Below are positions 5,100 through 44,345 of a DNA stretch of 44,345 bases, one piece after another. The stretch comes from Promethearchaeota archaeon (GTDB taxonomy: Archaea; Asgardarchaeota; Lokiarchaeia; Sigyniarchaeales; SOKP01), in the NCBI GenBank assembly GCA_008080735.1, contig SHMW01000017.1, forward strand, positions 14,196 through 58,540. Direction: 5' to 3'. Position 1 is the stretch's first letter, and every line of letters begins with the position of its first letter. Position numbers and translations under genes: made by a program. Below the pieces are notes generated by a model. That model made no database searches and was not told where the DNA came from. It saw only the letters and a program-made list of their open reading frames with translations.

Positions 5100-5172
5100 A
5101 ACTTTTCACAATATTCTTTAATGAAGAAAAATGAAAGAAATAATAAAAAATCAGAGATAATTGGTATAAAAC

Positions 5173-5742
5173 TCAATTAGCTCTTTCAAACGCCCATCTT
5201 GCTTTATCATCTAGTCCTAATGCTTGATAAGATCTTCCTAAATAAAGCCACGCATCTGGAAATTCAAAGTCCTGTTTTACCAATTTGAAAAGATGGTTAA
5301 TTGCCATATCATAACGCCCTCGTAGAAAATTGATTTTTCCGCGTAGAAACATTATTTCGTGCTTTTTATCATCATCATTCGTGAAACCATCCAACAGTTC
5401 TAATGCTTTTTTATATTCTTTCTGTTTAGTTAATTTCTCAATAACTTCTATTGTTTTAAGAAAAACCATATTCTTACATATTTCTTTAATCTTTATCTTA
5501 TTTTCTTCCTCCATCTGGAGTTTAAGTGCTTTCTGTGTTTCCTGCTCTTTTTTTTCTATGTAGGCTTGGAACTTTTGAATAATATTGTCATCATATTTAT
5601 CGTTGCATAAAGGACATTTTAACGAATGCGTTAACCATTCCCTTAGGCACGAAGTATGTGCCGCGTGACCGTTTGGGCATTCATCATACATCTCGGATTT
5701 TTCATCAATAGGAAGATGACAAATAATACATGAGGTTGGCAT
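5173..5742 (-). CDS. RING-H2 zinc finger plus TPR protein (putative E3 ubiquitin ligase)
   Basis: CIIC...CPNGH-AAH-TSC...W...CPLC (C3H2C3), a coiled linker, then TPR-like helices (FLRGKINFLRGRYDMAI; AWLYLGRSYQALGLDDKARWAFERA). Confidence 0.82.
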   Translation of the reverse strand: MPTSCIICHLPIDEKSEMYDECPNGHAAHTSCLREWLTHSLKCPLCNDKYDDNIIQKFQAYIEKKEQETQKALKLQMEEENKIKIKEICKNMVFLKTIEVIEKLTKQKEYKKALELLDGFTNDDDKKHEIMFLRGKINFLRGRYDMAINHLFKLVKQDFEFPDAWLYLGRSYQALGLDDKARWAFERAN

Positions 5743-10546: not shown

Positions 10547-12085
10547 ATGAAAGAGATTGTTTTCTATGGAGATGATGCGTTCTTCTATGATTTTCCGGAT
10601 AAAGTTGATATATACTACGCAAAACCAACGATCGAGCCCGAAAAGGATATTAATGCTGTGATTGATTCTGCACTACAAAATCCAATTAATTCTCCTAAGA
10701 TTGAGGATATAATCACTCCAGAATCAATGATATCTGTGTGTTTTGATGATATAAGCGTCCCATTACCTCCGATGAAAAGCGATGTAAGAGCAGTAGCTGC
10801 TCAACATGTTATTAGCATTCTTAGAGGAATTGGAGTGAAGGAGGAGAATATAAATTTCATTTGCGCAACCGGACTCCATAGGAAATGTAAACCTAAAGAA
10901 TTAAAACATATCTTGGGAAAAAAGATTTATCGAAAATATAAAGCCCAAATTATTAATCATGATGCTGAAGATAAGAGTAATCTTATAACACTCGCAACCT
11001 CTAGTAAAGGGTATAAAATAGAGATTAACAGAATGGCCGCTCAATCGGATCTTATTATTTATCTCAATATCAGCTTCACCCCGCTAAATGGGGGATGGAA
11101 GTCTATTATTGTTGGGTTAGGAAGTTATAACACCATTATCCCCCATCATTCCCCCGAAATGTTAAAAAAAGGTACCTTTATGGATCCTGAATCTTCGCAG
11201 TTACATAAAATCATCTGGGAGATGGGTGATCTCATAAAAGAAAAACTTAATCTGTTCACAATCGAGATGGTTATTAATAACAACTTCTATCGAGGAATTT
11301 ATGAAAAAATGTATAGACCTCTTAAATCTAAAATACAGAAACCCCCGCTATGGCGTAGAATGCTTTTTTCAATTTTTAGAGCTTTTCCGAAATCTGTGAA
11401 GGCATATGTACGGAAAAATTTGAAAGCGGGATATCAATTAATTGATGTGTTTGCGGGAGATATAGAGGATGCGCATAAGAAATCGATGGAGCTTATGAAT
11501 CGGCAGCTCAACGTGGAAATTTCTCAACAATATGATATTCTAATTTATGGAGTACCGAATCTTACCCCTTATAACGTGGGCTCAGAGATGAATCCCCTTT
11601 TACTTCATACTCTTGTTTCTGGATATTTGTTTAATATGCATCAAGGAGATTCACCTTTGAAAGAAGATGGCACTCTTATTATTTTAAATCCCGCCTATGA
11701 GAAATTTGATACTACTCAGCATCCGTCTTATCGAGATTTCTATTATGATATATTGTCTAATAAACCCGATATATTTAATCTTAAACAAATAGAACATGAG
11801 TATTTGCATAATGAAGAATATATTTCTAAATATAAGAATGAGTACGCGTATCATCCGGTTCACGCTCCCATCGTATATTATTGGGGAATTCGGGGGCTTT
11901 TAAATATTGGGAATGTAATTGTCGCTGGAGCCAAAAATAAAAATGTATTGGATATTTTCGGCTTTGAATATGCGAAGGATTTGGACGATGCACTGGGAAA
12001 AGCCCAGAGTAAATATCAAAAAGAATGCTCAATCGCATATTTTTGTATTCCTCCGTTATTTGTGGCTAAATTAGAGACAAAGTAA
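10547..12085 (+). CDS. Lactate racemase (LarA-like) domain protein
   Basis: AL.NPI.S, FDDISVP, ATGLHRK, NHD and GGWKS motifs of the LarA superfamily. Substrate unknown. Confidence 0.75.
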   Translation: MKEIVFYGDDAFFYDFPDKVDIYYAKPTIEPEKDINAVIDSALQNPINSPKIEDIITPESMISVCFDDISVPLPPMKSDVRAVAAQHVISILRGIGVKEENINFICATGLHRKCKPKELKHILGKKIYRKYKAQIINHDAEDKSNLITLATSSKGYKIEINRMAAQSDLIIYLNISFTPLNGGWKSIIVGLGSYNTIIPHHSPEMLKKGTFMDPESSQLHKIIWEMGDLIKEKLNLFTIEMVINNNFYRGIYEKMYRPLKSKIQKPPLWRRMLFSIFRAFPKSVKAYVRKNLKAGYQLIDVFAGDIEDAHKKSMELMNRQLNVEISQQYDILIYGVPNLTPYNVGSEMNPLLLHTLVSGYLFNMHQGDSPLKEDGTLIILNPAYEKFDTTQHPSYRDFYYDILSNKPDIFNLKQIEHEYLHNEEYISKYKNEYAYHPVHAPIVYYWGIRGLLNIGNVIVAGAKNKNVLDIFGFEYAKDLDDALGKAQSKYQKECSIAYFCIPPLFVAKLETK

Positions 12086-28034: not shown

Positions 28035-28913
28035 TTAAGTCATTTCTCTCTTTATAAGGTCTCGCTCTCTTAAATAATATTTGGGATAGTACCGTATCAC
28101 ACCCATACCTGCCGTGCGATTCCCCCCGACATTCGTGTATTCCCCGAAGCGGCACAAAATTTCGAGCCAGCGACAATTCTGCTCGTAATCGTCATTTACA
28201 TATTCGTAATCATACTCTCGCTCCAAGGTCTCTAATCTCTTTTTGTAGAAATTCTTGTTGATTGGGTTTACCCGATATGTGGCATTGCCCAACCCTCCGA
28301 CAACAGGACGACGTTTACCTATCTCTCTTTTTGCCGACCGCATTTTATATCCTGTAATATAGACATGGGCATTTATCCACTCGATAAATTCATCTCGGTT
28401 AATCTCGGCTACATTCTCGACGACTTCATTCCAAATATGTGCCAAATTTCCAAAAAGCAGTACGGGGATGGGAAATCGTACGGGATAATCCCCCATACTG
28501 GTGTTAAAATAAACTGGAGTCGCAAAATTGATGTTAAACCCACGCACGGGCTTGGCCTTCTCACACATACCCCTCAAATGAACTTTTTCGAAACTTATTC
28601 GGCTAATATAATAATTTTTCTCACCAAGCTCTAACTTGACCTTCTCGCCCGCCAGGATATCGTTCATAAGAAATTTACTCAAATTATCATTGTAGGATAC
28701 CAGAACGAAGTCAATTTTGGGCTGTTTTTTATGGATTATACAGTTGATTGAATAAGGTCTGATCTCCTCATACTCGTGGAGCAGATGGACGAGTTCCGGC
28801 TCCTTTTCGCTGAGCCATTTCATGATGACACCCCGAAAGACATAGCCGTAGGGATGGTTATAGGGCTTTACTCGATCGTCTTCGGGATATAGCTCGAAAG
28901 TGAGTTTTAACAT
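28035..28913 (-). CDS. cas6: CRISPR pre-crRNA processing endoribonuclease Cas6
   Basis: C-terminal Gly-rich loop GEYTNVGGNRTAGMG, LH...RPYS and FATPVYF. Last gene of the cas operon. Confidence 0.9.
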   Translation of the reverse strand: MLKLTFELYPEDDRVKPYNHPYGYVFRGVIMKWLSEKEPELVHLLHEYEEIRPYSINCIIHKKQPKIDFVLVSYNDNLSKFLMNDILAGEKVKLELGEKNYYISRISFEKVHLRGMCEKAKPVRGFNINFATPVYFNTSMGDYPVRFPIPVLLFGNLAHIWNEVVENVAEINRDEFIEWINAHVYITGYKMRSAKREIGKRRPVVGGLGNATYRVNPINKNFYKKRLETLEREYDYEYVNDDYEQNCRWLEILCRFGEYTNVGGNRTAGMGVIRYYPKYYLRERDLIKREMT

Positions 28914-28938: not shown

Positions 28939-31815
28939 TTAATTTAAATGTAAATTTTTAAGAATTGTTTGAGGGATTCCTGTATCAATATCTTTATTAT
29001 ATATGAATCCTGTCGTTTTGCTATACCATTCTGGGATATATTCCTCCTTTAAATAATAATAAAGAATTTTATCATTATCCAAACAGGTACTAACAATATT
29101 TCTGGTCTGTAAACTTTGTAAAATATTTTCATTAATAGTAATTGTATATCTGTAGAACTTATTTGGAATCGCGTTTATATGACCCTTAATTAATCCTTTA
29201 TGTATCTTTTTCGCTTTTGTATCTATAGGGATGAATAAATCCACTTGATTTGGATAACCCTCAATTAAATTAAAATTTTGGCTCAATAGATTAAATTTTA
29301 AATTTTTAAATTCTTTACATAAAACTCGAGTTGTATTGGGTTTTACAATTTCCTTAAAATATTGATCAAATTCACTCCTTAATTGTGGTTCTTCTATTTT
29401 AAAATATTTTCCAAAAAATTCATGATTCAAATTTTGACTAGATGCTTTTTTCAAGATATTTTCTGTGATATTCTTTACCATATTATTTTCGTAGATCCGA
29501 TGAAAAAATAGTCTATTATTTTTGTCTGAAGGATCTATTAACTTCATGAGAAAAAATAGACCCCCATCATCATATTCTAAATTTCGATTGCATCTTCCAG
29601 CAACTTGAATTATAGAATCTAAGGGTGCAAAATCTCGAAAAACTACTGAAAAAGAAAAATCAACTCCCGCTTCGATAACTTGAGTAGATATTACAATTAT
29701 TCGTTTCTTTTTTCTATCTAAACTAGATAATTGAGTATTATGTTTTAAATGAAATTTAATTTTTTCAATTTTATGTTGTCTATCCTTTGGCAATACTAAT
29801 GTTGATAATAATTCAATTTTTGTATTTTTTAGTTTTACTTTTGATAATTCTTGAAATGTTTTTATTGTAGCCCATTTTGTATTTAGTACTAGAAGAATAT
29901 CTTTATTTGGATTTGAACTCACATAGTCTAAAAATGAATCTATAAATTCTCCTAATAAAAATTCTCTTTCAAAATAAAAAATGGTGTATCTATTGATTGC
30001 TTGACAAAGTTCGATTTCATTTGGATAAGGTGAAATCTTAACCATTTTTTTCAAATGGTCTTTGGCTATCATCTCTGTATCATCTTTATGAATTATAGCT
30101 GGTAAAGTTGCAGTTGATAAAATAAAAGTAGAATTAAGTAAATGACTGAAATTTTCCACAATCTTTCCAATAATACCCCAGTACTTAATAGGAAGACATT
30201 GAACTTCATCTAAAATTATTATAGAATTCGCTAATCGATGAAATTTCAAAAAATTTTTTTTTAATGGTTTTATCAAAGAGTTGAAAATTTTAACAAATGT
30301 AGTAACTACAAATTCCGATCTCCAAGTTGATATTAACCATTTTGCATCCTTTCCGTAGATCATTTTAATTTCTTCTTCATGCAATTTCGACCCATTCTTA
30401 TATTCTTCTCTCCATGAAATATCACTAACGTAATTATCTATCGTTAAAAGAGAAGAACTTAAGATTTTTTTGTTATCCTTGTTTTCAAAAATATCACTTA
30501 TTTGATTTGCTACTTGTGAACCTATTGAGATAAATGGTAATCCATAAATGATTTTTGGTCTAAAACTATATTTTTTTTCATATTTACAAGAAAGCTTAAC
30601 GGCAAGATTTAGTAATGTTAAAGTTTTTCCCGCTCCAGTAGGGGAGCTTAACATGAATATTCCCCCCGCATCCAATTCTTCTTCATTTGCCTTTTTAAAT
30701 AATTGGTTTCGTAATTCGTATATTACATTTTTTGGTTCCTCGGGTTCAAATTTTTTTAATTTTTGACTAAATTTGGAAAAGGGTTTAGAAACAAAATTTA
30801 CTATAATGTTTTCATCTTTAAATGATTTAAAGGGAGGGGAAAATGGGAATTCATGTTGCTTTGCATTCTCCTTTGGAAAAAATCTGGCATCCCAAATATC
30901 TAGGTCACAGAGTAATGAAGCTACAAAAATTTGTAATACATAAAGATTAATTGAATCTGAACTATTGAACCCTTTCTTAATATTTTCGATCTTCTTAAAA
31001 TCTTTTTTAATTCTGTATCTGTAACTCATATCTAACGGATTTTGAGGATTTAAAGATAATAAGTCATTTTTGAATTTAATAAAAGCCTTTTTTAGTAAAT
31101 TATTTAATTCTTTTTGATATAAATCATAAAAAGGTAGATTGGAATTATGTGTGGGATTTTCTTTAGCTATATTGATTTTTTCTGAGAGATTCTCAAAAAA
31201 AGTATGTATATTTGATATGATAGAACTTATATAGCTAAAAATTACATTAAAATCCTCTGATCTGAAATCGCTTATAAATTCGATATAGTTTTCAAATATA
31301 TACGGAGAATGGTGATTTAGTATTGTATTAAACACTAAATATTTTATGATTTTTAATTCATTTTCAGATATTTTGTATTTGCCATCCAAACTGCTTAACA
31401 TCTGAATTTTTTTCTCATGATTGGCAAAATCACAAATTACGTCACATAAGCATATAGAAAATAAAGCACTTATTAGAGTATGATAAGAAAATTTAATCTC
31501 GCTACTTGGAATAGGGGAAGGATGTCGGTTATTTATTTCTCGATAAATTTTATATTGAAAATGTGGAAGGATCTTTCCGAAATCATGAGTGATGGTAGAT
31601 ATTAGTAAACTAATTTGTATAATTTTGTTAATTTGGGTTGAAAATGATAAGTAAGATCTGAGATATTCTTTGAGTTCAATAAAGATATTAGATATATGGT
31701 CAACAAGCGTTTGATCCGGTCTTGCGAGAAAAATAAATTCAGGATCTTCCCAAATCTCCATAAAATTTTTAAAATCTTTTTCAAACATTTTCTCGTTAAA
31801 AAAAAATTTAATCAT
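28939..31815 (-). CDS. cas3: Cas3 HD nuclease/SF2 helicase
   Basis: LVDH, HDFGK, YHTLIS, NHH and CDLD (HD domain). SPTGAGKT, LDEVQ, STAT, STQVIEAGVD and QVAGRCNR (helicase). Confidence 0.95.
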   Translation of the reverse strand: MIKFFFNEKMFEKDFKNFMEIWEDPEFIFLARPDQTLVDHISNIFIELKEYLRSYLSFSTQINKIIQISLLISTITHDFGKILPHFQYKIYREINNRHPSPIPSSEIKFSYHTLISALFSICLCDVICDFANHEKKIQMLSSLDGKYKISENELKIIKYLVFNTILNHHSPYIFENYIEFISDFRSEDFNVIFSYISSIISNIHTFFENLSEKINIAKENPTHNSNLPFYDLYQKELNNLLKKAFIKFKNDLLSLNPQNPLDMSYRYRIKKDFKKIENIKKGFNSSDSINLYVLQIFVASLLCDLDIWDARFFPKENAKQHEFPFSPPFKSFKDENIIVNFVSKPFSKFSQKLKKFEPEEPKNVIYELRNQLFKKANEEELDAGGIFMLSSPTGAGKTLTLLNLAVKLSCKYEKKYSFRPKIIYGLPFISIGSQVANQISDIFENKDNKKILSSSLLTIDNYVSDISWREEYKNGSKLHEEEIKMIYGKDAKWLISTWRSEFVVTTFVKIFNSLIKPLKKNFLKFHRLANSIIILDEVQCLPIKYWGIIGKIVENFSHLLNSTFILSTATLPAIIHKDDTEMIAKDHLKKMVKISPYPNEIELCQAINRYTIFYFEREFLLGEFIDSFLDYVSSNPNKDILLVLNTKWATIKTFQELSKVKLKNTKIELLSTLVLPKDRQHKIEKIKFHLKHNTQLSSLDRKKKRIIVISTQVIEAGVDFSFSVVFRDFAPLDSIIQVAGRCNRNLEYDDGGLFFLMKLIDPSDKNNRLFFHRIYENNMVKNITENILKKASSQNLNHEFFGKYFKIEEPQLRSEFDQYFKEIVKPNTTRVLCKEFKNLKFNLLSQNFNLIEGYPNQVDLFIPIDTKAKKIHKGLIKGHINAIPNKFYRYTITINENILQSLQTRNIVSTCLDNDKILYYYLKEEYIPEWYSKTTGFIYNKDIDTGIPQTILKNLHLN

Positions 31816-31826
31816 TAAATAAAAAA

Positions 31827-32843
31827 TTATAAGTTGATTTGATATAATTCCAGAGAGGATTTTACAAATTTTTTAGTATTTTTTATTGATGAAAATTCTT
31901 CTCCTTCATAGTAGTAAGTTATTTCTTTGTCTTCTTTGTATCCTATCTTAAAGATTTCATCCCCATATTTTTGAATTATTTCAATTAATCCCCCAATTTC
32001 AAAACAACACTCTTTAAAATTACTCGAATTATTATCTAATAACTTAATAGAATTTTTTATGTTAGGTATTTGTAATCGTGGATCTTTAGGGCAAATTGAT
32101 AATAATAAACGTGGCAGTTGCTGAAATTTAGTTCTTGTATTATGTGATTTTATTCCATTCCACATCGCGTTCAACAGATTTGGATAGTCTTCCTCTTGAG
32201 CACCAGAATATTTTGATAAAGATTTCTTAATAATACCATATACAGGAAAAATTGCATAATCAATTATTGAATATCTTCCCATAGATCCTGCCCCCTTTCC
32301 CGCTTCACTCGCCAGAGTTGAGGTTATTGGAATTCGAATAATCCGAGGAATATTCAAAGAGAGAGTATTTTGAAATTGAACTGGACCTGTGGTTGCATGT
32401 AAATCTCTGTGAACATAAAACATCGATCCAAAAAGGCGATGATCTATAAATCGAGTTTCTATTAGTTTAATTAGTTCTTTTCTAGACATATTTTTTAAGC
32501 GCTTTTTCGAAACATCAAAAATATCCATTAAGTTTTGCTTAATTGGTATTTCTTTTCCATTTTTATATTTGAAGGATTGTCTCATCAAGATATTGTTTTT
32601 TTGCGTTTTATCTTTATTTAGGAAATGTCTCCGAATCATATATTTAAAAGATACATCCGTGATTATTGCTCTTCTGGAATGCGAATCTATTCTTGGGCCT
32701 TGGAAGCCAGTTTCTCTTTCCCCGTTTGGATTACAGTCTCGCGCATCAAAAAGAAATAAAATTTGGCGAGAATTCAAATATTCAATTGAATTTCCATTAC
32801 CTATCTCGCTTCCGATAGCATTTTTATCTTCAGACTCAGACAT
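31827..32843 (-). CDS. cas7: Second, divergent Cas7b/Csh2-family protein
   Basis: CNPNG...PRID...ITDVSFKYMIR, FIDHRLFG, TGPVQF and NTRTKFQQLPRLL, all alignable to 33739-34707. Confidence 0.88.
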   Translation of the reverse strand: MSESEDKNAIGSEIGNGNSIEYLNSRQILFLFDARDCNPNGERETGFQGPRIDSHSRRAIITDVSFKYMIRRHFLNKDKTQKNNILMRQSFKYKNGKEIPIKQNLMDIFDVSKKRLKNMSRKELIKLIETRFIDHRLFGSMFYVHRDLHATTGPVQFQNTLSLNIPRIIRIPITSTLASEAGKGAGSMGRYSIIDYAIFPVYGIIKKSLSKYSGAQEEDYPNLLNAMWNGIKSHNTRTKFQQLPRLLLSICPKDPRLQIPNIKNSIKLLDNNSSNFKECCFEIGGLIEIIQKYGDEIFKIGYKEDKEITYYYEGEEFSSIKNTKKFVKSSLELYQINL

Positions 32844-32876
32844 TGTATTTTAAATCCTCTTTATTAAGAATTTTAT

Positions 32877-33734
32877 TTAGATTTCTTCAGATATTAGATC
32901 TTTACCATTAGGAATAAATATTATATTTAGGACTTCAGATTTATTATCCGCTATTTTGATTTCGACAGAATAAATATCTACATCATTTTTTACCTTAATC
33001 TTCAAATTACTCTCTTTACCACCGGGTAAAATGAAATTTTCTCCGAATGTATTAACAATTTTAGTATCTTTCATTTCCATTCTGATAGGGATATTCATAA
33101 TAATGGAAACTTTGCGTTCTAAAATATTCAAATAATTCTGATCTATACAAGAAACTGGAATTACAGAACTAATTCTTTCTATATCATTTGGAATTTTTTT
33201 AATGGGATATTCTCCAATATATATTATATCTGCTAAAAGATTTGCATGTCCTAAATATGTTGGAAAAATACTCCAATTATTTTTCAAATATCTTTTAAGT
33301 TTATCATACAATTCTTGATCTATTTCTTTTTCTGGTAATTTATAATAAATCCTATAATGCACGTCCCTTAATAGGTCCAATTTTACGTCAGTAACAAATC
33401 CGCGTTTTTCCCCATCAGAGAGATATGTTTTAAGTGTCCCCGATCTTCCACCTATATTCACAGTATATTTAGTATGAGCATAGTTAACTGTAAGAGGAGC
33501 ATGTTGAAATTCAGAATTCTCTCCTAAATTTAGCAACTGAATAGCAATTTCAGAATTACCTAATGGATCATCTATTTCCCAATAAGAATTTTTTTCTTTT
33601 CCTATCATTGCTCCAATTAATCCTATAATTGATGTTCTTGTAAAAGGAAACGAAAGTGTGGCACGAGTAACTTCTGGGGTTTTGAAAAAACCGAAGTCTC
33701 CTAACACATCAAATACTAAAACTTTATCTGTCAT
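32877..33734 (-). CDS. cas5: Cas5b (Cas5h) Cascade subunit
   Basis: FDVLGDFGFFK.PE....TLSFPF.RTSIIGLIGAMIG, DVHYRIY and TYLGHANLLA. Confidence 0.92.
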   Translation of the reverse strand: MTDKVLVFDVLGDFGFFKTPEVTRATLSFPFTRTSIIGLIGAMIGKEKNSYWEIDDPLGNSEIAIQLLNLGENSEFQHAPLTVNYAHTKYTVNIGGRSGTLKTYLSDGEKRGFVTDVKLDLLRDVHYRIYYKLPEKEIDQELYDKLKRYLKNNWSIFPTYLGHANLLADIIYIGEYPIKKIPNDIERISSVIPVSCIDQNYLNILERKVSIIMNIPIRMEMKDTKIVNTFGENFILPGGKESNLKIKVKNDVDIYSVEIKIADNKSEVLNIIFIPNGKDLISEEI

Positions 33735-33738
33735 TTAA

Positions 33739-34707
33739 TTACTCTCCTTGAAAATCTAGCCAATCAACAGTAATACCTGAAAATTTTTTAGATAAATAGT
33801 TTTTAATGTTCTGAATCATCTCGTCTCCATCATATAAAGCTAACGCATCATCATGGAGAAGATTTATAGAATCTATATTTTCTTTTCCTCCCTCTATTCT
33901 CTCTATAAAAGTTGAGATATCCAAACGAGCCTCCTCAACTGAGTTGATCTCGTTTTCCTTTAATATGAATCCAAGATCCAGATCGCCAATTTGTGATTTA
34001 CCTTTTTTTGATTCTATATCCATTAATAGTCGCGGCATATGGTTAAATTTACTTCTTGTATTCAATTGTTTAGTTCCCATCCACATCCCTCGGAATAATT
34101 CATTCAAATCCTCTCTTGTAAACATAGTTTTTATCGCATTTATTTCACTTGCAATTCCATGGAAGTTTATCAAGGAATAATCCACTATATGATATTCTCC
34201 AAAAGTTCCTTGACCCTTCTCTTCTGTAGAAGCAAGAGTTGCGGTAATTGTCTTTGTCTTTATTAATGGTTTATTCAAAGAACGACCTAATCCAAATTGA
34301 ACTGTCCCTGTAATGGAATAATTAGCGTTTGATAAAGTTACCGCGGCTCCAAAACTCCTAACATCTATAAATTCCTTAGGTAAATCTGTTGCTAATTTTG
34401 CACGTGCTTCAGCGGCTTTAGATTTAGTAATAGAACCCATATTTAAAAACTCTGTTGCCAAATCATCCATGGTTTTTCTATTACCCTCTTTATTTGTTTC
34501 GGCTCGTACTAATATCTTTTCTCCATTTTCTAACCAAAAATCCCGGATCGTTCTCTTTAATCGAACATCAGTTACAATATTTTGTTCAGTTTCATCATCC
34601 ATACGTGGCATGTTTGAGTTATCGGGATCCCCGTTTGGATTTGCGTCTCTCACATCATACATGAACACAATTTCATGTCTATTTTCCAATAAATTATTTT
34701 TTGACAT
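33739..34707 (-). CDS. cas7: Cas7b/Csh2 Cascade backbone subunit (type I-B)
   Basis: YDVRDANPNGDPD.N.PRMD, VTDVRLKRTIRD, FIDVRSFG, SITGTVQFG.GRSL and TRSK...PRLL. Confidence 0.95.
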   Translation of the reverse strand: MSKNNLLENRHEIVFMYDVRDANPNGDPDNSNMPRMDDETEQNIVTDVRLKRTIRDFWLENGEKILVRAETNKEGNRKTMDDLATEFLNMGSITKSKAAEARAKLATDLPKEFIDVRSFGAAVTLSNANYSITGTVQFGLGRSLNKPLIKTKTITATLASTEEKGQGTFGEYHIVDYSLINFHGIASEINAIKTMFTREDLNELFRGMWMGTKQLNTRSKFNHMPRLLMDIESKKGKSQIGDLDLGFILKENEINSVEEARLDISTFIERIEGGKENIDSINLLHDDALALYDGDEMIQNIKNYLSKKFSGITVDWLDFQGE

Positions 34708-34801
34708 TTTTATAACCCTTCCTTAATTTTGAATTTTTTAGTTTTTGAGTTTTGTTAAGAATTTTAAGCAAAAACTCAACTAAGAAATTATTTTATAATA
34801 T

Positions 34802-36187
34802 TCACCGATTGATTTTTCTGAATAAACGGAAAAAACTTTCATAACCTTGAATAAATGAAATTATAACTTCATTAGGATCTACTCTTTCCGGTAAGGTCCC
34901 AATTAGTTTTACTAATTTTACTCTTATTTTGTTTAATTTTTGGAAATATTTTATATCATTTACGTTCTTTCGGGATATTTTTAGAGATTTTTCAATCTGA
35001 TCGCTCCATAAATATATATAAGTCTTGTATATTTCCATATATAACTCTTGAATGCTCTTCCTCACAAAATGCCGAAATAAAACATTTAATCTTTTATCTA
35101 ATCTCCCTGTTTTTACGGTTAATTTTTCTTCATGATTAGTCGTCTGAAATAGAATTCCCAATAAAAATGCTACTTTCTCAGCCTTATTTCTAAACTTCAT
35201 TTTCTTAAATTGATTAACATAATGATCTTCTGTGACAATATTTTTACCTCCAACTGAAATGGTTTTAGGTTCTCCAATATCTTCAAATATGTCTTTTTCT
35301 TTATAGCTATATTTTAGGCAATCTTCCCACAGAAATCCTGTAATAAAACCTAAAAAAAGATCTTCATCTCTAAAAGTTATAGTATCCTCCGCTATATATT
35401 TAAAAATGTCTAGTTGGATATTATCGTAGGGCAAAAATGTATTGATATCATTTTTTGGAATCTTTGAAATATTTGTGGTAAAGATTTTCAAAATAATACT
35501 ATTTGTTTCTCGTAAAATTTTTCTCAAATTTCTTAGATTGGGATTTCTTATATAGGATTTTAGAAATTTATTTAAACTTGAGGTCTTTAAATCTCTAATT
35601 TGCTTTTTAATGACTCGGAAGATGAATAATGCTGAGAGGAAACCCAATTGAAATGAATAATTCTTCTCATATCCATCATAATGCCATATTTTTTCGTAAA
35701 CAGGTGGGTTTATATTTTTTTTGCCAAATGTATCTAAAATCGCCATGGAATATAGATTATATCCAGTTATCATAGCTAAACTAAGATCTTCAGGGTCAGA
35801 TACCCAATCCCCCTCTTTTAAATTAGATAGTAAATCATCTACTTTTTCATAGAGAAAAGTTCTTGGAATATGTTTAGTTTTTGCTATAGAATTCTGAAGT
35901 CGTTTACATTTTTTCCATAAAAACTTGGCTTTTTGGTATGAGACTATTTTAAAAAGAATTATAACCTCTTTTGGAATACTCCCTGTTTGGTAAAATTTTT
36001 GTTGTCTATACGTGGTGTTATTTAAAAGCGCTCCCAAATAAAGTATCGTTCTAAGATCCTTTTCTTTGAAAAATCTCGTAGACTTAAATTCGTTTAAACG
36101 CGTTTCAAAAGCCTCCTTAATCTTATTTAAATAATCTACAAATTGACTCTTTTCACTAGTAAGATTTACGTTAATCATGTTTGACAT
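34802..36187 (-). CDS. Protein of three tandem Cas11b-like (small subunit) domains
   Basis: Three ~110-120 aa units, each opening with [YF]-x-LG-x-L (LYLGALL / FQLGFLS / AFLLGILF) and closing with D-x-[ED]...[IQT]-G-[YF] (DPEDLSLAMITGY / RDEDLFLGFITGF / DPNEVIISFIQGY). This resembles the C-terminal Cas11 region of Csh1/Cas8b. Start at 36187 overlaps the cas8 stop (TAATG) and follows GGAGG. Confidence 0.72.
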   Translation of the reverse strand: MSNMINVNLTSEKSQFVDYLNKIKEAFETRLNEFKSTRFFKEKDLRTILYLGALLNNTTYRQQKFYQTGSIPKEVIILFKIVSYQKAKFLWKKCKRLQNSIAKTKHIPRTFLYEKVDDLLSNLKEGDWVSDPEDLSLAMITGYNLYSMAILDTFGKKNINPPVYEKIWHYDGYEKNYSFQLGFLSALFIFRVIKKQIRDLKTSSLNKFLKSYIRNPNLRNLRKILRETNSIILKIFTTNISKIPKNDINTFLPYDNIQLDIFKYIAEDTITFRDEDLFLGFITGFLWEDCLKYSYKEKDIFEDIGEPKTISVGGKNIVTEDHYVNQFKKMKFRNKAEKVAFLLGILFQTTNHEEKLTVKTGRLDKRLNVLFRHFVRKSIQELYMEIYKTYIYLWSDQIEKSLKISRKNVNDIKYFQKLNKIRVKLVKLIGTLPERVDPNEVIISFIQGYESFFRLFRKINR

Positions 36188-37761
36188 TATTGATAATCCC
36201 TCCATAATTTGCCATTAGAAAATAAGAAATTATATAATTCATAACTTTTTAATGGGGATCTATAAGATAATTTTATTCTCTTTTTTTCATCATTTTCTGT
36301 TCTAAATGCAATAAAACTCTTTTTTAAAGGTACCGCAGTATCTTTAATAAAATTTTTCCTGTACACTTTTTTTAAACTTAATAATGAAGAATAATAATGC
36401 AAAAAACTTCTCGAATCCATTAAATTTTTTAGCCCCGATAAGCGAACTTTATTAATATCTAGAATATCATTATTCTTTGCCTTGAAAAAAAGATCTGCAA
36501 GCTTTTCGATATTACTGCTGTTCATAATAATTTGAGACATAATTTGTTTTGTCTTAGGATTTAATTTTTGATTGGTTATTTTAAAATATAAATCCATTAT
36601 AGGTATTGCCTTTTCCTCTGAAAATAATTCAATAACAATCTCTTCGATAGGGAATGAATTTGAAATACTTTCCAGTTGTTTTTCATTCTTTGAAATCCTT
36701 TCTTGATAATCTGTTTTTAATTTATTCAATTCCTTTTTTGTTAATTCTTTTGCTTTCTCATTAATATCTTCAATTGAAGAACGTAATTGTTTTAAGTTAT
36801 CTTCAAAATTTTTCTTAGCTTTTTCATCATAATGTTGTTTTGCTTTTTTTATCGTTTCAACGTCATCTTTTAAAGACTTTAAATCTTTAGACAATGGTAT
36901 TACATAATGATAGATCGGAACAGATTTTCTTCCTTCTTTAATTTTATAGGAATAAAAAGTTAGATCTTCTTTCAAAATAACATAGCCTAAAAGGGAATAA
37001 AAATAACAATTGCTACACATGAGATATTGGAATGAAAAATCTGAGGTATTTTCAAAAAATGCAGATTGAAAACTGGCTTGATCTATTGTATATAATCCAA
37101 AATTAAACCCTTCACGAATACCTTTTGAACTTCCGCAAATCGAACATTTTCCATCTTCATCTAATTTATCCGTTTTTCCAAGATAAATATATTCATACAT
37201 TCTGCGCATTAGAGGAATCTCTCCCAAGAATTTTTCACCGTCTTCATCAATTATTTTAAATATCAATGGATTTTGGAAGCTAGAATATCCTTGTTTTTCT
37301 AAAAAATTAGCAAGCTTCTCTTGAATTTCTTTTTTATTTTCTTTAATATATTCAAGTAGATTTTTAATCTTTAGAGTATAATTTCCAAAATCAGCTTCTA
37401 ATAACTCAAAAATAGGTTTTTTATCGATCTTTTCCTTGAGGATTTTAATGATTTTATTTAGCTTGATTTTTCTATTCTTTCCCGATTTACTCCAACCAGT
37501 ACTCAAGGTTAATGAATAATTTGTTGATCTCCCAGAGGTCAATCCTAAAAGATAATCTCTTGATTTTTCAGCTTCATAATCAATAATTCTATACTCAAAT
37601 GAGATATCTTCGATTTCCTGAATATTTGCTTTTATTGTTAGTAATTTTGGAGGATTTTCATCATCTGATTTAACAGGATTTTGGGTTCTTATTAAAATTT
37701 CATATGGTTCTTGTTCATCGTAAAACGCTCTCCCGATCTTTTGGATTTGATTAATAATCAT
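36187..37761 (-). CDS. cas8b: Cas8b1 (Csh1/TM1802-like) large subunit lacking the C-terminal Cas11 domain
   Basis: MI..I..IG N-terminus, CSIC...YTIDQASF...CSNC zinc finger (similar to Csh1 FYT.DK.GF) and YVIP. First gene of the Cascade block. Confidence 0.78.
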   Translation of the reverse strand: MIINQIQKIGRAFYDEQEPYEILIRTQNPVKSDDENPPKLLTIKANIQEIEDISFEYRIIDYEAEKSRDYLLGLTSGRSTNYSLTLSTGWSKSGKNRKIKLNKIIKILKEKIDKKPIFELLEADFGNYTLKIKNLLEYIKENKKEIQEKLANFLEKQGYSSFQNPLIFKIIDEDGEKFLGEIPLMRRMYEYIYLGKTDKLDEDGKCSICGSSKGIREGFNFGLYTIDQASFQSAFFENTSDFSFQYLMCSNCYFYSLLGYVILKEDLTFYSYKIKEGRKSVPIYHYVIPLSKDLKSLKDDVETIKKAKQHYDEKAKKNFEDNLKQLRSSIEDINEKAKELTKKELNKLKTDYQERISKNEKQLESISNSFPIEEIVIELFSEEKAIPIMDLYFKITNQKLNPKTKQIMSQIIMNSSNIEKLADLFFKAKNNDILDINKVRLSGLKNLMDSRSFLHYYSSLLSLKKVYRKNFIKDTAVPLKKSFIAFRTENDEKKRIKLSYRSPLKSYELYNFLFSNGKLWRDYQ

Positions 37762-37932: not shown

Positions 37933-39084
37933 CTAAATAAAATAAATATTTTTATTATTTTCCAATAAATTAGATAAAAAATAAGAGAATTCAGCAATTC
38001 GACCATGATTGAGTACTATCTTTTTTGGTTGACAATCGCTTATAAATTCAGTTAAATTCTTAAAGTCGACATGATCACTATACTTAAAATATTCGTCAAC
38101 GGGGAATTTGTTCCTATATTCTTCACTTATAACTTTACCACTTAATAATACTAATTTTGCTCCCGACCTGATTAGTGTTTTATAGGGTTCTCTAAACATA
38201 TAATACGGAGGAATTAATAAGACGTAATCTTTTTTCTTTTTCAATTTATTTTTTGTATAATTTCCATATGGTTCCCAATTTCCAAAATCAATTCCATTCA
38301 ATTCCAATATCTCTACAATGTTCGATATCGATCTCTCTAGTATAACTTTTTTAGAACATTCAAGCATATTAAGGATTGCTTGGCTTTTACCAAACGAATA
38401 AGATAATATAATTATGGGGAATCCTTGAGTTAGATGTGTTTTAACATACTCATTTATTCTTTTTTTTAATGTAAAGAATGAAGGAAATGTAAATTTTGGA
38501 GATCCATATGTACATTCTGTTATTAAATAATCACATTTAATTGGTTCTAAGCCCCTTAATCCTGTTCTATTTTTTCCGAAATACTTGTTCTCGCCGATAA
38601 AATCACTTGTAATTAAGATCCTTTCTGACCCCTCGATCAATAGGCTCCTCGATCCGTATGTATGGCCGTTCTCTATTAAACTTATTTTGAGATTGTCAAA
38701 ATAAATAGATTCTCTTGTTTTATTACTCTTCCCTAATAACCACATCGATTCTGGAAAGGTAAATTTCTCTCTTTTCCTATGTTCTGCTATTTCTTTAGTT
38801 ATTTTGGTGCATAGAAATCCAACCTCGGAATCACCTTTTTCTAGTTTTGTTATATCTTTATTAGGAATATTTGGGATATGATCCATATGCGCATGTGAAA
38901 TATAAATTAAATCCGCTTTAGGATTCCAATGATCAATAGCAATTAGAGTATCATCAATTTTTATAAAATTTCCATATAATGCATGTTTGCGAATTATCAC
39001 ATTTTTATTTTTTAATCCATGATCTCTTTCTTTACTTCTTAAATAATTTTTTAAATTTCGTATAGGATTTTCTAATTTTTCCAT
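37933..39084 (-). CDS. MBL-fold beta-CASP nuclease within the cas locus
   Basis: IAID, SHAHMDH, NGHTYGS, TSDF, ITECTYG (motif A), YSFGKSQ, YSDHVD (motif B) and LNHG (motif C). Confidence 0.9.
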   Translation of the reverse strand: MEKLENPIRNLKNYLRSKERDHGLKNKNVIIRKHALYGNFIKIDDTLIAIDHWNPKADLIYISHAHMDHIPNIPNKDITKLEKGDSEVGFLCTKITKEIAEHRKREKFTFPESMWLLGKSNKTRESIYFDNLKISLIENGHTYGSRSLLIEGSERILITSDFIGENKYFGKNRTGLRGLEPIKCDYLITECTYGSPKFTFPSFFTLKKRINEYVKTHLTQGFPIIILSYSFGKSQAILNMLECSKKVILERSISNIVEILELNGIDFGNWEPYGNYTKNKLKKKKDYVLLIPPYYMFREPYKTLIRSGAKLVLLSGKVISEEYRNKFPVDEYFKYSDHVDFKNLTEFISDCQPKKIVLNHGRIAEFSYFLSNLLENNKNIYFI

Positions 39085-39134
39085 TGAGAACTTCCCATTT
39101 TCTTTTGTATAAAATTAAAATTTTTCTTAAATAA

Positions 39135-39809
39135 TTATGCCCTTAAACAATATGTATTACATTCACAATCTCTACATTTATTTTTATGGCTCGTCGGGTC
39201 AGGAATCTTTTCTGAATGTATCATTTCTTGAATTTCTTTAATAACTTTAAGTACATTTAACTTATCCTCAATACCAATAGGGTATTCAATAAATTTTTCA
39301 TACTTCAAATAAAACACACGAACTTTTTTTACTAGAAAATCGAAATTTCTCTCAATTAAAAGTGCTTGAGCAGCAACTTGGTATTTATCTGGATTTTTCA
39401 TCCCTTCTGGTGGAATATTTCCTGATTTAATCTCAATCGGATACGCCTCATTCCCATCGTACTCAAAGTAGTCTATTACACCCACTAATCCGACTTCAGA
39501 ATCTGTTAGATAGATATTAAAATATTTTTGAGTTTTTTCATGAGATTTATTCGATAATTTTTGTAATTCTTCATGCTTCTCTAAACCATATTGCATTTTA
39601 TAAGTTTGCCTCATTGGGGAGTTCAAAACATATCTAAAAAATATCTTTCTTTTACAATATATATACTGTCGAATCTCCTCTGTCCCTATTAAAGATTTCT
39701 CAAATAAATTAATATTTGGATATGCTCTTCTAATATTATTTAACTCATCTCTTCCCAGCCTGTATTTCCTCAATAATTCTTCAATTCCTTTTTCTTTCAT
39801 TATATTCAA
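39135..39809 (-). CDS. cas4: Cas4 RecB-like nuclease with Fe-S cluster
   Basis: QYIYCKRK, G...H, GVID, PIEIKSG, QVAAQ and KCRDCECNTYC (1+3 Cys). Confidence 0.93.
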   Translation of the reverse strand: MNIMKEKGIEELLRKYRLGRDELNNIRRAYPNINLFEKSLIGTEEIRQYIYCKRKIFFRYVLNSPMRQTYKMQYGLEKHEELQKLSNKSHEKTQKYFNIYLTDSEVGLVGVIDYFEYDGNEAYPIEIKSGNIPPEGMKNPDKYQVAAQALLIERNFDFLVKKVRVFYLKYEKFIEYPIGIEDKLNVLKVIKEIQEMIHSEKIPDPTSHKNKCRDCECNTYCLRA

Positions 39810-39858
39810 TAGAATGGAATAATGATTTTTCTTTAAACTAATTGGAATTTACATTTAT

Positions 39859-40152
39859 CTACATTGACAAAATATCTTCAATTACTTTATAGCCATCCCC
39901 AAATTTAGATTTGACCGTTATAACTTTTGAATGACATCTTTTGCATATCGGAATTATTCGCACATCTCCAGGGACATTCTTCATCAATTTCTCTAACTTT
40001 AAGGCAATCTCCTCGGCTTTGTTATACGTAAGGTCACCAAAAAATACGCTATAATTTAAGCGAACCATATAATATGATAATAGAATATCCGAGATTTTCG
40101 TGCGAATCGGATCAAATTCCACAGGAATATCATAAATAACCAGAAATTTTAT
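39859..40152 (-). CDS. cas2: Cas2 (probable non-ATG start)
   Basis: Extending the ORF upstream gives IKFLVIYDIP...R.KISDIL..Y...R.NYSVFFG...DVRIIPICKRC. The VIYDI motif lies upstream of the GTG used by the ORF track. Confidence 0.9.
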   Translation of the reverse strand: MKFLVIYDIPVEFDPIRTKISDILLSYYMVRLNYSVFFGDLTYNKAEEIALKLEKLMKNVPGDVRIIPICKRCHSKVITVKSKFGDGYKVIEDILSM

Positions 40153-40265
40153 GATTAAAACCTCCTTTAATTTAGTCTCGTTTTTTTAATTTTGTATTTG
40201 TTAAATCTAATCGATCAATTATGAGTTGTAATTTATATTAGACATATACTTAATGAGCATATCCC

Positions 40266-41345
40266 TCACCAATCCATAATATACGGCTCGTAGGAAGATG
40301 TAGAGCCGATAAGATAATTAGCTAATCTTCTTGCTTGCTTTACCATAGCTTTTTTATAATTCTTTTTCATTACATTTTTAATGTCTTCGTCATATTCCGA
40401 CTCGGAAAATAATTCTTCTGATTTATCCCCGCCTTGGACTTCTTTCCTCAATTCTTCATAGTATAATGACTTTTTTTCTTGGGTCAACCGATATCCGTGA
40501 AGCGATTGCTCAAAATCCTCCACTTTTAACTGGTTCTGCTGTATTAAACGGAGAACTAATCTGTCGATAATTGGTTGCCTAAACTCTTCAAGAAGATCAA
40601 GCGCTAATGATGGTTTACCTGACCGATCGCTATGAAGAAATCCGCCATATAATTCCAATCCCGCTGAAGCAATTGCGGTCGTTACGTGCCCTTGAAGTAC
40701 AGTATATCCAAGAGATAATAGTGAATTTACGGGATCCTTAGGTGGCCGCCTTGACCTTTGAAATGTCTTAAATTCATTGGGAAATGAATTTCCGTATGCT
40801 TGAAAATAGATGGCAGCAGATTTTCCTTCAATTCCCATTATCTCACGCCTCCTCTTATTAATTGTATCTCCTTTAGAGATAGTCTTTTTGAACTTTTCCA
40901 ATACTTTCGTCATTTTCTTTAAATTCTTCGCAGCTACGTCAAGAAATTTAGCTTTTGCTGGACTATTCTTGCGACGATTTTTCGCTAAATATTTCAATAA
41001 CCTCCGTTTATTCTCAATCGTAGCGTAGGCTATTTGCGATGCTACATGCAACCCTCTCTGATCTTCATACGCAAGAATTTGTTGTCTACGAGTAAATACA
41101 GTACCAACATTAGCGAAAGGAGTAAAAAGACCATATGGATTCCCAAGGGAAGTATATACGATATTTACCGCATAAGAGGAAAGCGCTTTTAACGCTTGCG
41201 ACGTAATTTGCACCCCGTTACCGACAATTATGCTTTCTACTTCCCTTAGTGGGATTTCGACGTTGTCTCTTTCTGGAACTGAAATCTTTATCATCTCTTT
41301 CCTTTTACCAACCCGGGTTCCAGGAGTTTCTAAAATTATATCCAT
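40266..41345 (-). CDS. cas1: Cas1 integrase
   Basis: MGIEG..A..YF, RRPPKDPVNSLLSLGY, GFLH and SLALDLLEEFR; catalytic E, H and D/E are present. Confidence 0.96.
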   Translation of the reverse strand: MDIILETPGTRVGKRKEMIKISVPERDNVEIPLREVESIIVGNGVQITSQALKALSSYAVNIVYTSLGNPYGLFTPFANVGTVFTRRQQILAYEDQRGLHVASQIAYATIENKRRLLKYLAKNRRKNSPAKAKFLDVAAKNLKKMTKVLEKFKKTISKGDTINKRRREIMGIEGKSAAIYFQAYGNSFPNEFKTFQRSRRPPKDPVNSLLSLGYTVLQGHVTTAIASAGLELYGGFLHSDRSGKPSLALDLLEEFRQPIIDRLVLRLIQQNQLKVEDFEQSLHGYRLTQEKKSLYYEELRKEVQGGDKSEELFSESEYDEDIKNVMKKNYKKAMVKQARRLANYLIGSTSSYEPYIMDW

Positions 41346-41473
41346 TTTTAATTTTTTTCTCTCTCTGTTTTATTTTGATGCAAATTTATCTGTTCTACTG
41401 TTTATATATTCCTTATTAACTTTTTTTATATATTCTCCTTTCTCGAATACTGGTTGTTTTATACATTTTCTGT

Positions 41474-43174
41474 TTAGATTATTACTCTCCCGATTAATTC
41501 ATTTATATGGATAATTGAGGGTTCTCGTGAAAGATTTGTGTTCGAAATTAACCAAGGACCTAATGAAGCATAAACATTATACATTTCCAACTTATTCAAT
41601 TGATATGATTTTATTTGAAAAAAATCCTCTACAACATTTCCAAAAAGTCTGTATAACACCGTCACATTGGGGTTCGATTTCCTTGTTTTATCTTCCTCTT
41701 TTAATATAGCATCTAAAAGTATATTGGATAAGTTTGAAGAGTTCGGTTTAGCATCGATGAAATTACTCACAAGTAAATAATGCCCTACATACTCCTCAAG
41801 ATAATCTCTAAACTCGGTATATAGGGGTGGAAATTTTCTGTAAATATTAATAACATTTAAGACTTCTATATCCAGCTTTAAAAGGGCATCAACGATGCAC
41901 TTCAATAATTCTGAAGGTCTAATGAGTAAATAGTTAAGCAAACCTTTAACTTTGGTGTCATTGTAATAATTAAGAAACGAAAAGATTAACCATTCTGTTA
42001 TTCGATCTTTCATAATGTTTGCTGATATCTCCTCTTCTTCCGGTGAAAATATGACTCTCAAATGGAAAGGCTTGGAATTATTATGATTTTGGTCATTCTG
42101 ATGAATCTGATGATTATTATAACAATTATAGAGGTCATAATAATAATTATCCTTATTACGATAATCTGAGCTGATGGAATCATTCATAATTTTAGAATAA
42201 TTTTTATCCTCCCTATCCTCCCTATCCTCATTATCCTCATTATGATTTGTTATTTCTATAACCGAGATTAACTCTCTCGCTACTTTTGATAATAAGTTTG
42301 TTAGTGTTTCCAAATTGATGATTCGATTTCGACGCCCTAAGATTACACCAAACAAGCCTCCCTCCCAAATCATTTGATATTTTAGCGATCCTAACGGAGC
42401 TATTGTAATCTTGAGTGTCTGTGTATCATACATGACTAATCCGATTCCATAATCTTTTAAGCATGGATTTAATCGCTCTGAGTCCTTAGGAAAACCACAT
42501 TGCGGTTCTAACAAGTTCTCACATAATACATCATTTTTATAAGAGGCACTTACAAAATCCTTGCCGGCCTCATTGGATTTATTATTAGGTTGATGTCCGT
42601 CTCTGGAATGGGTTAAGTTAAAAGCATTTTCGATTACCGCATTTAGACAATCCCAATAATCATAATATACCTTCTTCTGACAATCAGCACATAAGGCAAT
42701 TGGAACCTGTTTTAGAGGTTTTGATGGGATTATTGGTTTTGGTGATATCATTGGCTTTGATAACTCTAGTGGCTTTAATGAATTTGATTGTTTTGAAGCT
42801 CCTTTAATAAGATTACTATTTTGACGACTATCTCTACTTTTAAATTTGCCCGTTAACGGTGTCTTAGTGAAACAGTTATAGTTCTTAAGGTTGCTTTCGC
42901 ATAAAACACATACTTTCTTAGAAGTAAAATTCACATTTACAGACCCATAAAAATATGTCAATTGAGTATCACGTTGGGGAGAATGAATATCAAGATACGG
43001 ATACCATCTCCCTAAATATGGCCTTAAGATAATGCGCTTAATAATCTTCCTGGGAAAAATTAATTGTAAACTCTCCTTAACAAATATGTCTGAAGCCTCT
43101 AAAAGAACGTTTTCAACTTCGTATTTCCCCAAAATGGAATTACTTTGACCTTCTTGAGAAAACGCATCTTCCAT
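41474..43174 (-). CDS. Divergent DUF2797-like Zn-binding protein with low-complexity insertions
   Basis: CVLC...CADC...C...C..C...C pattern, TLKITIA...MIWEGG and C-terminal LGPWLI...HINELIGR recall the DUF2797 layout. Recognition is tentative. Confidence 0.5.
   Translation of the reverse strand: MEDAFSQEGQSNSILGKYEVENVLLEASDIFVKESLQLIFPRKIIKRIILRPYLGRWYPYLDIHSPQRDTQLTYFYGSVNVNFTSKKVCVLCESNLKNYNCFTKTPLTGKFKSRDSRQNSNLIKGASKQSNSLKPLELSKPMISPKPIIPSKPLKQVPIALCADCQKKVYYDYWDCLNAVIENAFNLTHSRDGHQPNNKSNEAGKDFVSASYKNDVLCENLLEPQCGFPKDSERLNPCLKDYGIGLVMYDTQTLKITIAPLGSLKYQMIWEGGLFGVILGRRNRIINLETLTNLLSKVARELISVIEITNHNEDNEDREDREDKNYSKIMNDSISSDYRNKDNYYYDLYNCYNNHQIHQNDQNHNNSKPFHLRVIFSPEEEEISANIMKDRITEWLIFSFLNYYNDTKVKGLLNYLLIRPSELLKCIVDALLKLDIEVLNVINIYRKFPPLYTEFRDYLEEYVGHYLLVSNFIDAKPNSSNLSNILLDAILKEEDKTRKSNPNVTVLYRLFGNVVEDFFQIKSYQLNKLEMYNVYASLGPWLISNTNLSREPSIIHINELIGRVII
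42205..42240. repeat. Four in-frame 9-bp tandem repeats TATCCTC(CC/AT)
   Basis: tatcctccc tatcctccc tatcctcat tatcctcat, encoding the NEDNEDREDRED tract on the minus strand. Confidence 0.85.
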
Positions 43175-44285: not shown

Positions 44286-44287
44286 AG

Positions 44288-44345
44288 GACATAGAATATA
44301 GCTTCAGAAAGAAGATTGAAATATGCAAGAAGGTATGTGTTCAGT
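44288..44345 (+). CRISPR. Probable first CRISPR repeat (ends 44322) plus partial spacer, truncated by the window end
   Basis: GACATAGAATATAG-CTTC-AGAAA-GAAG-ATTGAAAT: a 4-bp stem followed by exactly 8 nt (ATTGAAAT), the usual Cas6 handle. Only one copy is visible, so the 5' boundary is uncertain. Confidence 0.6.

Follow-up and report, generated by a model that had tools for sequence, protein, structure and literature searches.

[quoted passage not shown]

Type I Cascades are described as homo-filaments of Cas7 accompanied by loose copies of Cas11. An operon of an Asgard archaeon (4.1-Mb assembly) carries two divergent cas7 genes, one on either side of cas5, and it raises the question of what a second Cas7 would do in such a complex. 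The operon lies in a stretch of 44,345 nucleotides of contig C17 (referred to below as the window), and relatives of the locus are labelled Lokiarchaeota, Promethearchaeota and Helarchaeota. The run of genes, all on the minus strand, consists of a gene for a 566-aa unknown protein, cas1 (40266-41345), cas2 (39859-40122), cas4 (39135-39809), a beta-CASP nuclease gene (37933-39084, 383 aa; TIGR04122, E 1e-32), genes for proteins of 524 aa (36187-37761) and 467 aa (34802-36205), cas7, cas5, cas7', cas3 (28939-31815) and cas6 (28035-28913). The Cas3 protein (958 aa) is an HD-nuclease/helicase, which passes TIGR01587 and matches the HD model TIGR01596 (E 3e-10), and Cas6 (292 aa) passes PF10040.

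The first of the two genes, cas7b copy 1 (33739-34707, minus strand, 322 aa), encodes a canonical Csh2-type backbone subunit (PF05107, E 9e-60). It is followed by cas5b (32877-33734, minus strand, 285 aa), whose sole NCBIfam match, TIGR02592 (E 7e-23), reaches 81.5 bits against a cut-off of 97, and by the divergent copy 2 (31827-32843, minus strand, 338 aa; PF05107, E 3e-36), which we call Cas7'. The description given in the initial annotation, of two full-length Cas7b reading frames flanking cas5 and sharing their motifs in the same order, was borne out, both genes being intact and matching PF05107. The two proteins are 33% identical over 308 aligned columns (E 2e-42); with the Cas7/Csh2 model TIGR02590 (cut-off 171.55) copy 1 scores 236.6 bits and copy 2 remains below, at 122.4 bits. 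No further cas7 of the PF05107-type family was detected in the genome.

An AT-rich gap of 94 bp (34708-34801) lies upstream of cas7 copy 1; gaps of 43-106 bp are found there in six related loci, and the other junctions of the two-cas7 module are mostly shorter. This gap might act as a promoter within the operon or enhance translation of the multi-copy subunit. A scan with a bacterial promoter model, unsuited to archaea, gave fewer matches than expected by chance, and codon adaptation (with a reference set of only five genes) gave no sign of higher translation of copy 1 than of copy 2.

The differences between the copies were analysed by comparing 22 sequences of copy 2 with 29 of copy 1 and 43 single-copy Asgard Cas7 proteins. 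Copy 1 retains the canonical motifs of single-copy Asgard Cas7b. Copy 2 retains 36 core positions, the RRM core and a full-length, well-conserved thumb, and has fixed changes at otherwise near-invariant sites: D27/P28 are replaced by E/R, R49 mostly by C and S219 by T, and N32 and E12 are lost. These changes (DP to ER, R49 to C, loss of N32) are concentrated in the N-terminal loop and the first helix. The replacement of NPNGDP by NPNGER, first noticed in the window protein, proved to be a family-wide trait (E42 in 82% and R43 in 95% of the 22 sequences), whereas in copy 1 and in the single-copy Asgard proteins D/P occupy this position in 97-100% of the sequences. The change of RLKRTIR to SFKYMIR is present in the window, and closely similar in its two nearest relatives, but does not extend to the family, whose consensus is VCLKRxIR. 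An N-terminal extension, also listed as a feature of copy 2, is not conserved, being missing in P0006, P0008 and P0009, and was rejected as a functional feature. The median pI is 8.8 for copy 2, 5.7 for copy 1 and 6.0 for single-copy Asgard Cas7.

A protein search yielded 16 orthologues of copy 2 (37-79% local identity), and the alignment comprised 22 sequences in total. When 1.8 billion representative sequences were searched with a profile, seven Cas7' clusters (50% identity) scored 335-461 bits, and the next match, at 271, was ordinary Cas7b. Cas7' is present in 13 of the 13 readable loci of the two-cas7 lineage, all of which are ordered cas8b, a gene for about 470 aa, cas7, cas5, cas7', cas3. 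The family is rare: of 400 genomes of the phylum, the window genome and G049 were the only ones with it; pattern scans of genomes and metagenomes gave no loci beyond those from the protein search.

When the window is compared with locus L030 (dS about 0.6), the dN/dS values of cas7', cas7 copy 1, cas5 and the 467-aa gene are 0.19, 0.13, 0.16 and 0.20, respectively. The distances of copy 1 and copy 2 are correlated across 12 loci (Spearman 0.73), with copy 2 diverging at 1.57 times the rate of copy 1 and 1.07 times that of Cas5. According to the initial annotation, absence or decay of copy 2 in related loci would speak against its proposals; the gene is instead kept across the lineage under purifying selection. 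The view that copy 2 has become redundant or is decaying, or that it acts outside Cascade, is scarcely credible. In its favour one could cite the score of copy 2 below the TIGR02590 cut-off and one assembly (L117:6386-7313) in which the loss of about 50 nt disrupts the gene, but three other assemblies of the same strain have it intact, and the low dN/dS, the intact gene in 22 divergent sequences and the fixed, family-specific residues argue against it. We also rejected a reading of copy 2 as a pseudogene.

Several observations concern individual loci. In L114 (9135-11904) cas3 was called as two ORFs, of 475 and 414 aa. The two-cas7 locus L029 (1-2659) has, upstream of cas6, a reverse-transcriptase gene with six internal repeats of 81-nt period. 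In the two closest relatives of the window locus an ORF of 171-175 aa, absent from the window, lies between the beta-CASP gene and cas8b (L030:4452-4979, L036:2816-3331); a Pfam scan of the L030 copy gave no match.

In phylogenetic analysis the copy 2 sequences form one clade (support 100/100) on a stem of 0.95, and the trees of Cas5, Cas8 and Cas3 each group the two-cas7 loci as a monophyletic unit (support 99-100), which indicates that the module arose once and has been inherited whole. Copy 2 is placed closer to the Asgard Cas7 lineage of L021 and L084 (98/88) than to copy 1, a position that may be an artefact of its long stem; an AU test constraining both copies to one clade, as expected had the gene been duplicated locally and not recruited from a sister lineage, gave p = 0.058. 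This position, as if the gene came from a sister system, would suit a second backbone protein, which could polymerise together with copy 1 or make up a Cascade of its own (e.g. for anti-CRISPR escape or for other crRNAs), as would the full length of Cas7' with its core RNA-binding motifs and thumb. We nevertheless regard a second backbone as unlikely. Residues that never vary among the filament-forming Asgard Cas7 proteins are exchanged in Cas7', only one repeat type occurs at each locus, and no locus with copy 2 but without copy 1 was found. Moreover, Cas7' is in some loci fused to Cas5 (see below), so that every such subunit of a filament would bring a Cas5 with it. The alternative backbone of the initial annotation is therefore disfavoured, because a Cas5-fused subunit cannot easily build a filament and copy 2 is never found alone.

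An independent tandem duplication of cas7 was observed on another branch, in two genera of the family to which the window genome belongs (L018:9198-11624 in G033 and L019:1173-3440 in G017). There the genes are ordered cas8b, a single cas11, cas7, cas7, cas5, cas3; the two cas7 copies are 42% identical, and the one adjacent to cas5 has the longer branch and a change of DVRLKR to PYRIKR.

In three loci cas5 and cas7' form a single reading frame: L111 (614 aa, on three contigs), L112 (633 aa, on two) and L114 (611 aa, on one). All three keep a separate canonical cas7. The fusion proteins form a single clade (100/97), in which the terminal branches measure 0.45-0.72, and the fusion thus arose once and has persisted. 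No in-frame ATG, GTG or TTG codon and no Shine-Dalgarno-like word was found in the linkers (34-62 aa), so Cas7' is tied 1:1 to the single-copy Cas5. As the solved I-B and I-C structures contain a single Cas5 per Cascade, the fused Cas7' should likewise be present in a single copy, near Cas5. An AF2 model of the fused chain (pTM 0.82, with a low-confidence linker) and the resemblance of its Cas7' half to Cas7c/Csh2 structures each lend weak support. A predicted complex of Cas5, Cas7 copy 1 and Cas7' scored 0.85, compared with 0.80 for a control in which another chain took the place of copy 1, and these scores speak neither for nor against such an arrangement.

[quoted passage not shown] A single-copy first subunit was among the options of the initial annotation, and it is this one that the Cas5-Cas7' fusions, purifying selection and universal retention in the lineage support. 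We infer that Cas7' is incorporated into the complex, with 1:1 stoichiometry and at its base. For the unfused orthologues, including the window protein, this role would be an extrapolation from 3 of the 22 members, whose fusion has one origin; in addition, a linker of 34-62 aa is long enough to extend past the first backbone position, which counts against the base-position reading. In I-C the 5' handle is clamped by Cas5 and the last Cas7 (PMC7684278), in I-E the Cas7 adjacent to Cas5 adopts a unique conformation, with its finger domain rotated, and contacts PAM-proximal DNA (PMC5965380), and in III-Dv the Cas7 fused to Cas5 is located directly above Cas5 (PMC11026444).

Single-copy behaviour is compatible with either end of the filament, and Cas7' might also be a cap at the 3' head, like Cmr1/Cmr6 or Csm5 of type III or the extra head Cas7 in which the I-C filament ends; the type III caps are themselves diverged Cas7 paralogues. 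Such a position is very unlikely, given that Cas5, to which Cas7' is fused, is located at the other end of the filament, that the linker between the two can measure as little as 34 aa, and that the thumb of Cas7' is full-length and well conserved.

Another conceivable main job of Cas7' is the docking of a partner enzyme, either Cas3 or the beta-CASP nuclease. The gene always lies directly before cas3, Cas8b is shortened, and a subunit at the base could also serve for docking. However, Cas7' is missing from single-cas7 loci in which the same split Cas8b is accompanied by Cas3, the N-terminal extension is lacking in some family members, and the beta-CASP gene and cas7' are uncoupled in both directions, the former being present in the single-cas7 loci L021, L104 and L105 and absent from the two-cas7 loci L034, L112 and L114. 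Docking as the main role is thus highly improbable. The nuclease travels with cas1, cas2 and cas4; the earlier suggestion that it docks on copy 2 is not supported, and we rejected the nuclease as an effector or a partner of Cas7'. In the window (37933-43174) the beta-CASP gene and a gene for an unknown protein of 420-570 aa flank cas1-cas2-cas4, and the same pair occurs in many Asgard I-B loci (L018, L021, L027, L104, L105, L111 and L113), whatever the form of the effector. The two may be accessory genes of adaptation, encoding e.g. a prespacer-trimming nuclease.

The second Cas7 is not the only unusual subunit of this system. The 524-aa protein is 29% identical over its length to Cas8 of L111, which matches PF09484 at positions 2-462 of 602, and its sequence identifies it as a Cas8b large subunit without the last part of PF09484. 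A Cas11 HMM, built from 16 stand-alone small subunits of 138-170 aa, did not match it, and matched full-length Asgard Cas8b once, at the C-terminus. With the 467-aa protein the same HMM gave three matches (E 2e-16, 7e-12 and 5e-9); its Cas11 domains lie at residues 24-153, 174-291 and 330-461 and are 21-26% identical to one another. The AF2 model of this triple Cas11b is all-helical (pTM 0.87), and its repeat 1 best matches the C-terminus of Cas8c (Z 8.2, rmsd 3.4, 110 aligned) and Cas11c (Z 7.4). Such structural scores (Z 7-8) are moderate for helical proteins, the comparison covered chiefly repeats 1 and 2, and Foldseek gave no match to the model at E <= 0.001, so that the assignment as a triple Cas11 rests on the HMM result.

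Proteins with several Cas11 domains (432-461 aa) also occur in the single-cas7 loci L021 (7590-8975) and L084 (7624-8922), where two repeats were detected and a third is likely; L021 has an unknown 304-aa ORF (10821-11735) at the position of cas7' in other loci. In many Asgard I-B loci (L071-L083, L104, L105) the shortened cas8b is followed by a separate gene for a Cas11b of 138-170 aa, in contrast to I-B as described, where Cas11b is translated from within cas8b. Asgard loci show a set of states, namely full Cas8b; split Cas8b with a single Cas11; multi-Cas11 with one Cas7 (L021, L084); triple Cas11 with two Cas7; and the Cas5-Cas7' fusion. Any order of events among these states would be conjectural.

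A single CRISPR repeat ending ATTGAAAT (44287-44322, plus strand), preceded by an AT-rich stretch, is found 23 bases from the end of the contig, which probably truncates the main array. It resembles the array repeats of L105 and L113. Arrays of 12-64 repeats are present at L111-L114. The spacers (mostly 35-41 nt) and the 5' handle (ATTGAAAT) of two-cas7 loci equal those of single-cas7 Asgard loci; the geometry of the guide therefore looks unchanged, and no new RNA feature explains the specialisation of Cas7'. Contig C64 of the window genome holds, near 5100-5330 on the minus strand, a small degenerate array of two near-identical and two partial repeats. The cas6 gene of the window differs in GC3s (0.47) from the effector genes (0.16-0.22), which points to an origin apart from theirs; contig C82 holds a second cas6, with 34% identity.

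Comparison with known systems places the locus in type I-B (Csh2/Hmari), for which the system of Haloferax (PMC11899642), the Cascade of Synechocystis (PMC11096372) and the Thermobaculum Cas7 (PDB 7XZ3) served as references. Shared with I-B are a Csh2 backbone gene (copy 1 passes TIGR02590), a putative Cas5b, a TM1802-type Cas8b (by its homology to the L111 protein, PF09484 2-462), Cas3 with an N-terminal HD domain and an SF2 helicase, Cas6, Cas1, Cas2, Cas4 and repeats ending ATTGAAA(T/C), an 8-nt handle ending ATTGAAA(N) being found in the one repeat of the window and in the L111-L114 arrays. Known I-B systems have one cas7, with a homo-oligomeric backbone, and translate Cas11b from within the 3' part of cas8b. 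In contrast, the Asgard system has a shortened cas8b, three Cas11 domains in a separate gene and two conserved Cas7 paralogues, the second sometimes fused to Cas5.

With I-C (D. vulgaris, PDB 7KHA/8DEJ; PMC7684278) it shares the Cas7 family (PF05107; best fold match) and three Cas11 folds, supplied in I-C by the Cas8c C-terminus and two Cas11c and in the Asgard system by one chain. I-C, however, has seven identical Cas7 and no Cas6, its crRNA being processed by Cas5c, whereas cas6 is present here and the two Cas7 reach only 138.7 and 77.4 bits with TIGR02589 (cut-off 182). Position-specific Cas7 paralogues and subunit fusions, including Cas7-Cas5, characterise the fused effectors III-Dv, III-E and III-I (PMC11026444; PMC12669027), but those are RNA-targeting and Cas10-derived, with unrelated Cas7 families, and the order of the fusion here is Cas5-Cas7'. 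With Cas8b and Cas3 in the operon and both Cas7 in PF05107, the locus does not belong to III-Dv, and the parallel is one of convergence. Type VII, in which the beta-CASP nuclease Cas14 acts with Cas7 and Cas5 (PMC10910872), resembles it in being archaeal and in having a beta-CASP gene near cas7 and cas5. The type VII effector has a Cas10-like C-terminus and no adaptation module, though, while the beta-CASP protein described here, of 383 aa, follows adjacent adaptation genes, reaches 39 bits with the Cas14 model NF045584 (cut-off 800) and is accompanied by Cas8 and Cas3.

The Asgard system with Cas7', triple Cas11 and split Cas8b is thus a real and conserved variant of type I-B. As we envisage it, a DNA-targeting Cascade of the Csh2/Hmari type would have made its repeated subunits position-specific. 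The crRNA would be cut by Cas6, and Cas5 with one Cas7' would clamp the 5' handle at the base, in the position of Cas7.7 in I-C and Cas7.6 in I-E. Along the spacer of 35-41 nt the filament would be built from about six canonical Cas7 subunits (copy 1), the PAM would be read by the shortened Cas8b, one triple-Cas11 chain would provide the three belly domains, and the target would then be degraded by Cas3. More speculatively, the more basic Cas7' might grip the PAM-proximal duplex, and the split might be kept for subfunctionalisation or for escape from inhibitors that bind the base position.

Searches of the 2025 classification with its supplements and of the literature, together with the main text of the 2023 survey based on clustering, revealed no type I system that has two different Cas7 proteins, joins Cas5 to Cas7 or carries a triple Cas11; Makarova et al. 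2020 (PMC7307682), which deals with Asgard CRISPR variants, and the supplementary locus figures of PMC10910872 lie outside this scope and may contain an earlier mention. We lean, by a little, towards the view that Asgard I-B followed an undescribed route from a homo-oligomeric Cascade to fused parts of fixed stoichiometry, in which Cas11 was split off Cas8b and tripled into one chain, and duplication of Cas7 gave a paralogue specific to the base, which was fused to Cas5. Type I would thereby have its own equivalent of the path from III-D to III-Dv to III-E.

To conclude, the results suggest a Cascade in which normally identical, repeated subunits have turned position-specific, a situation so far described mainly for type III. 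If this is true, the Cas5-adjacent position could be mutated alone, which is impossible in a homo-oligomer, and what it contributes to handle binding, to gripping of the duplex and to sensitivity to anti-CRISPRs could thereby be tested directly.
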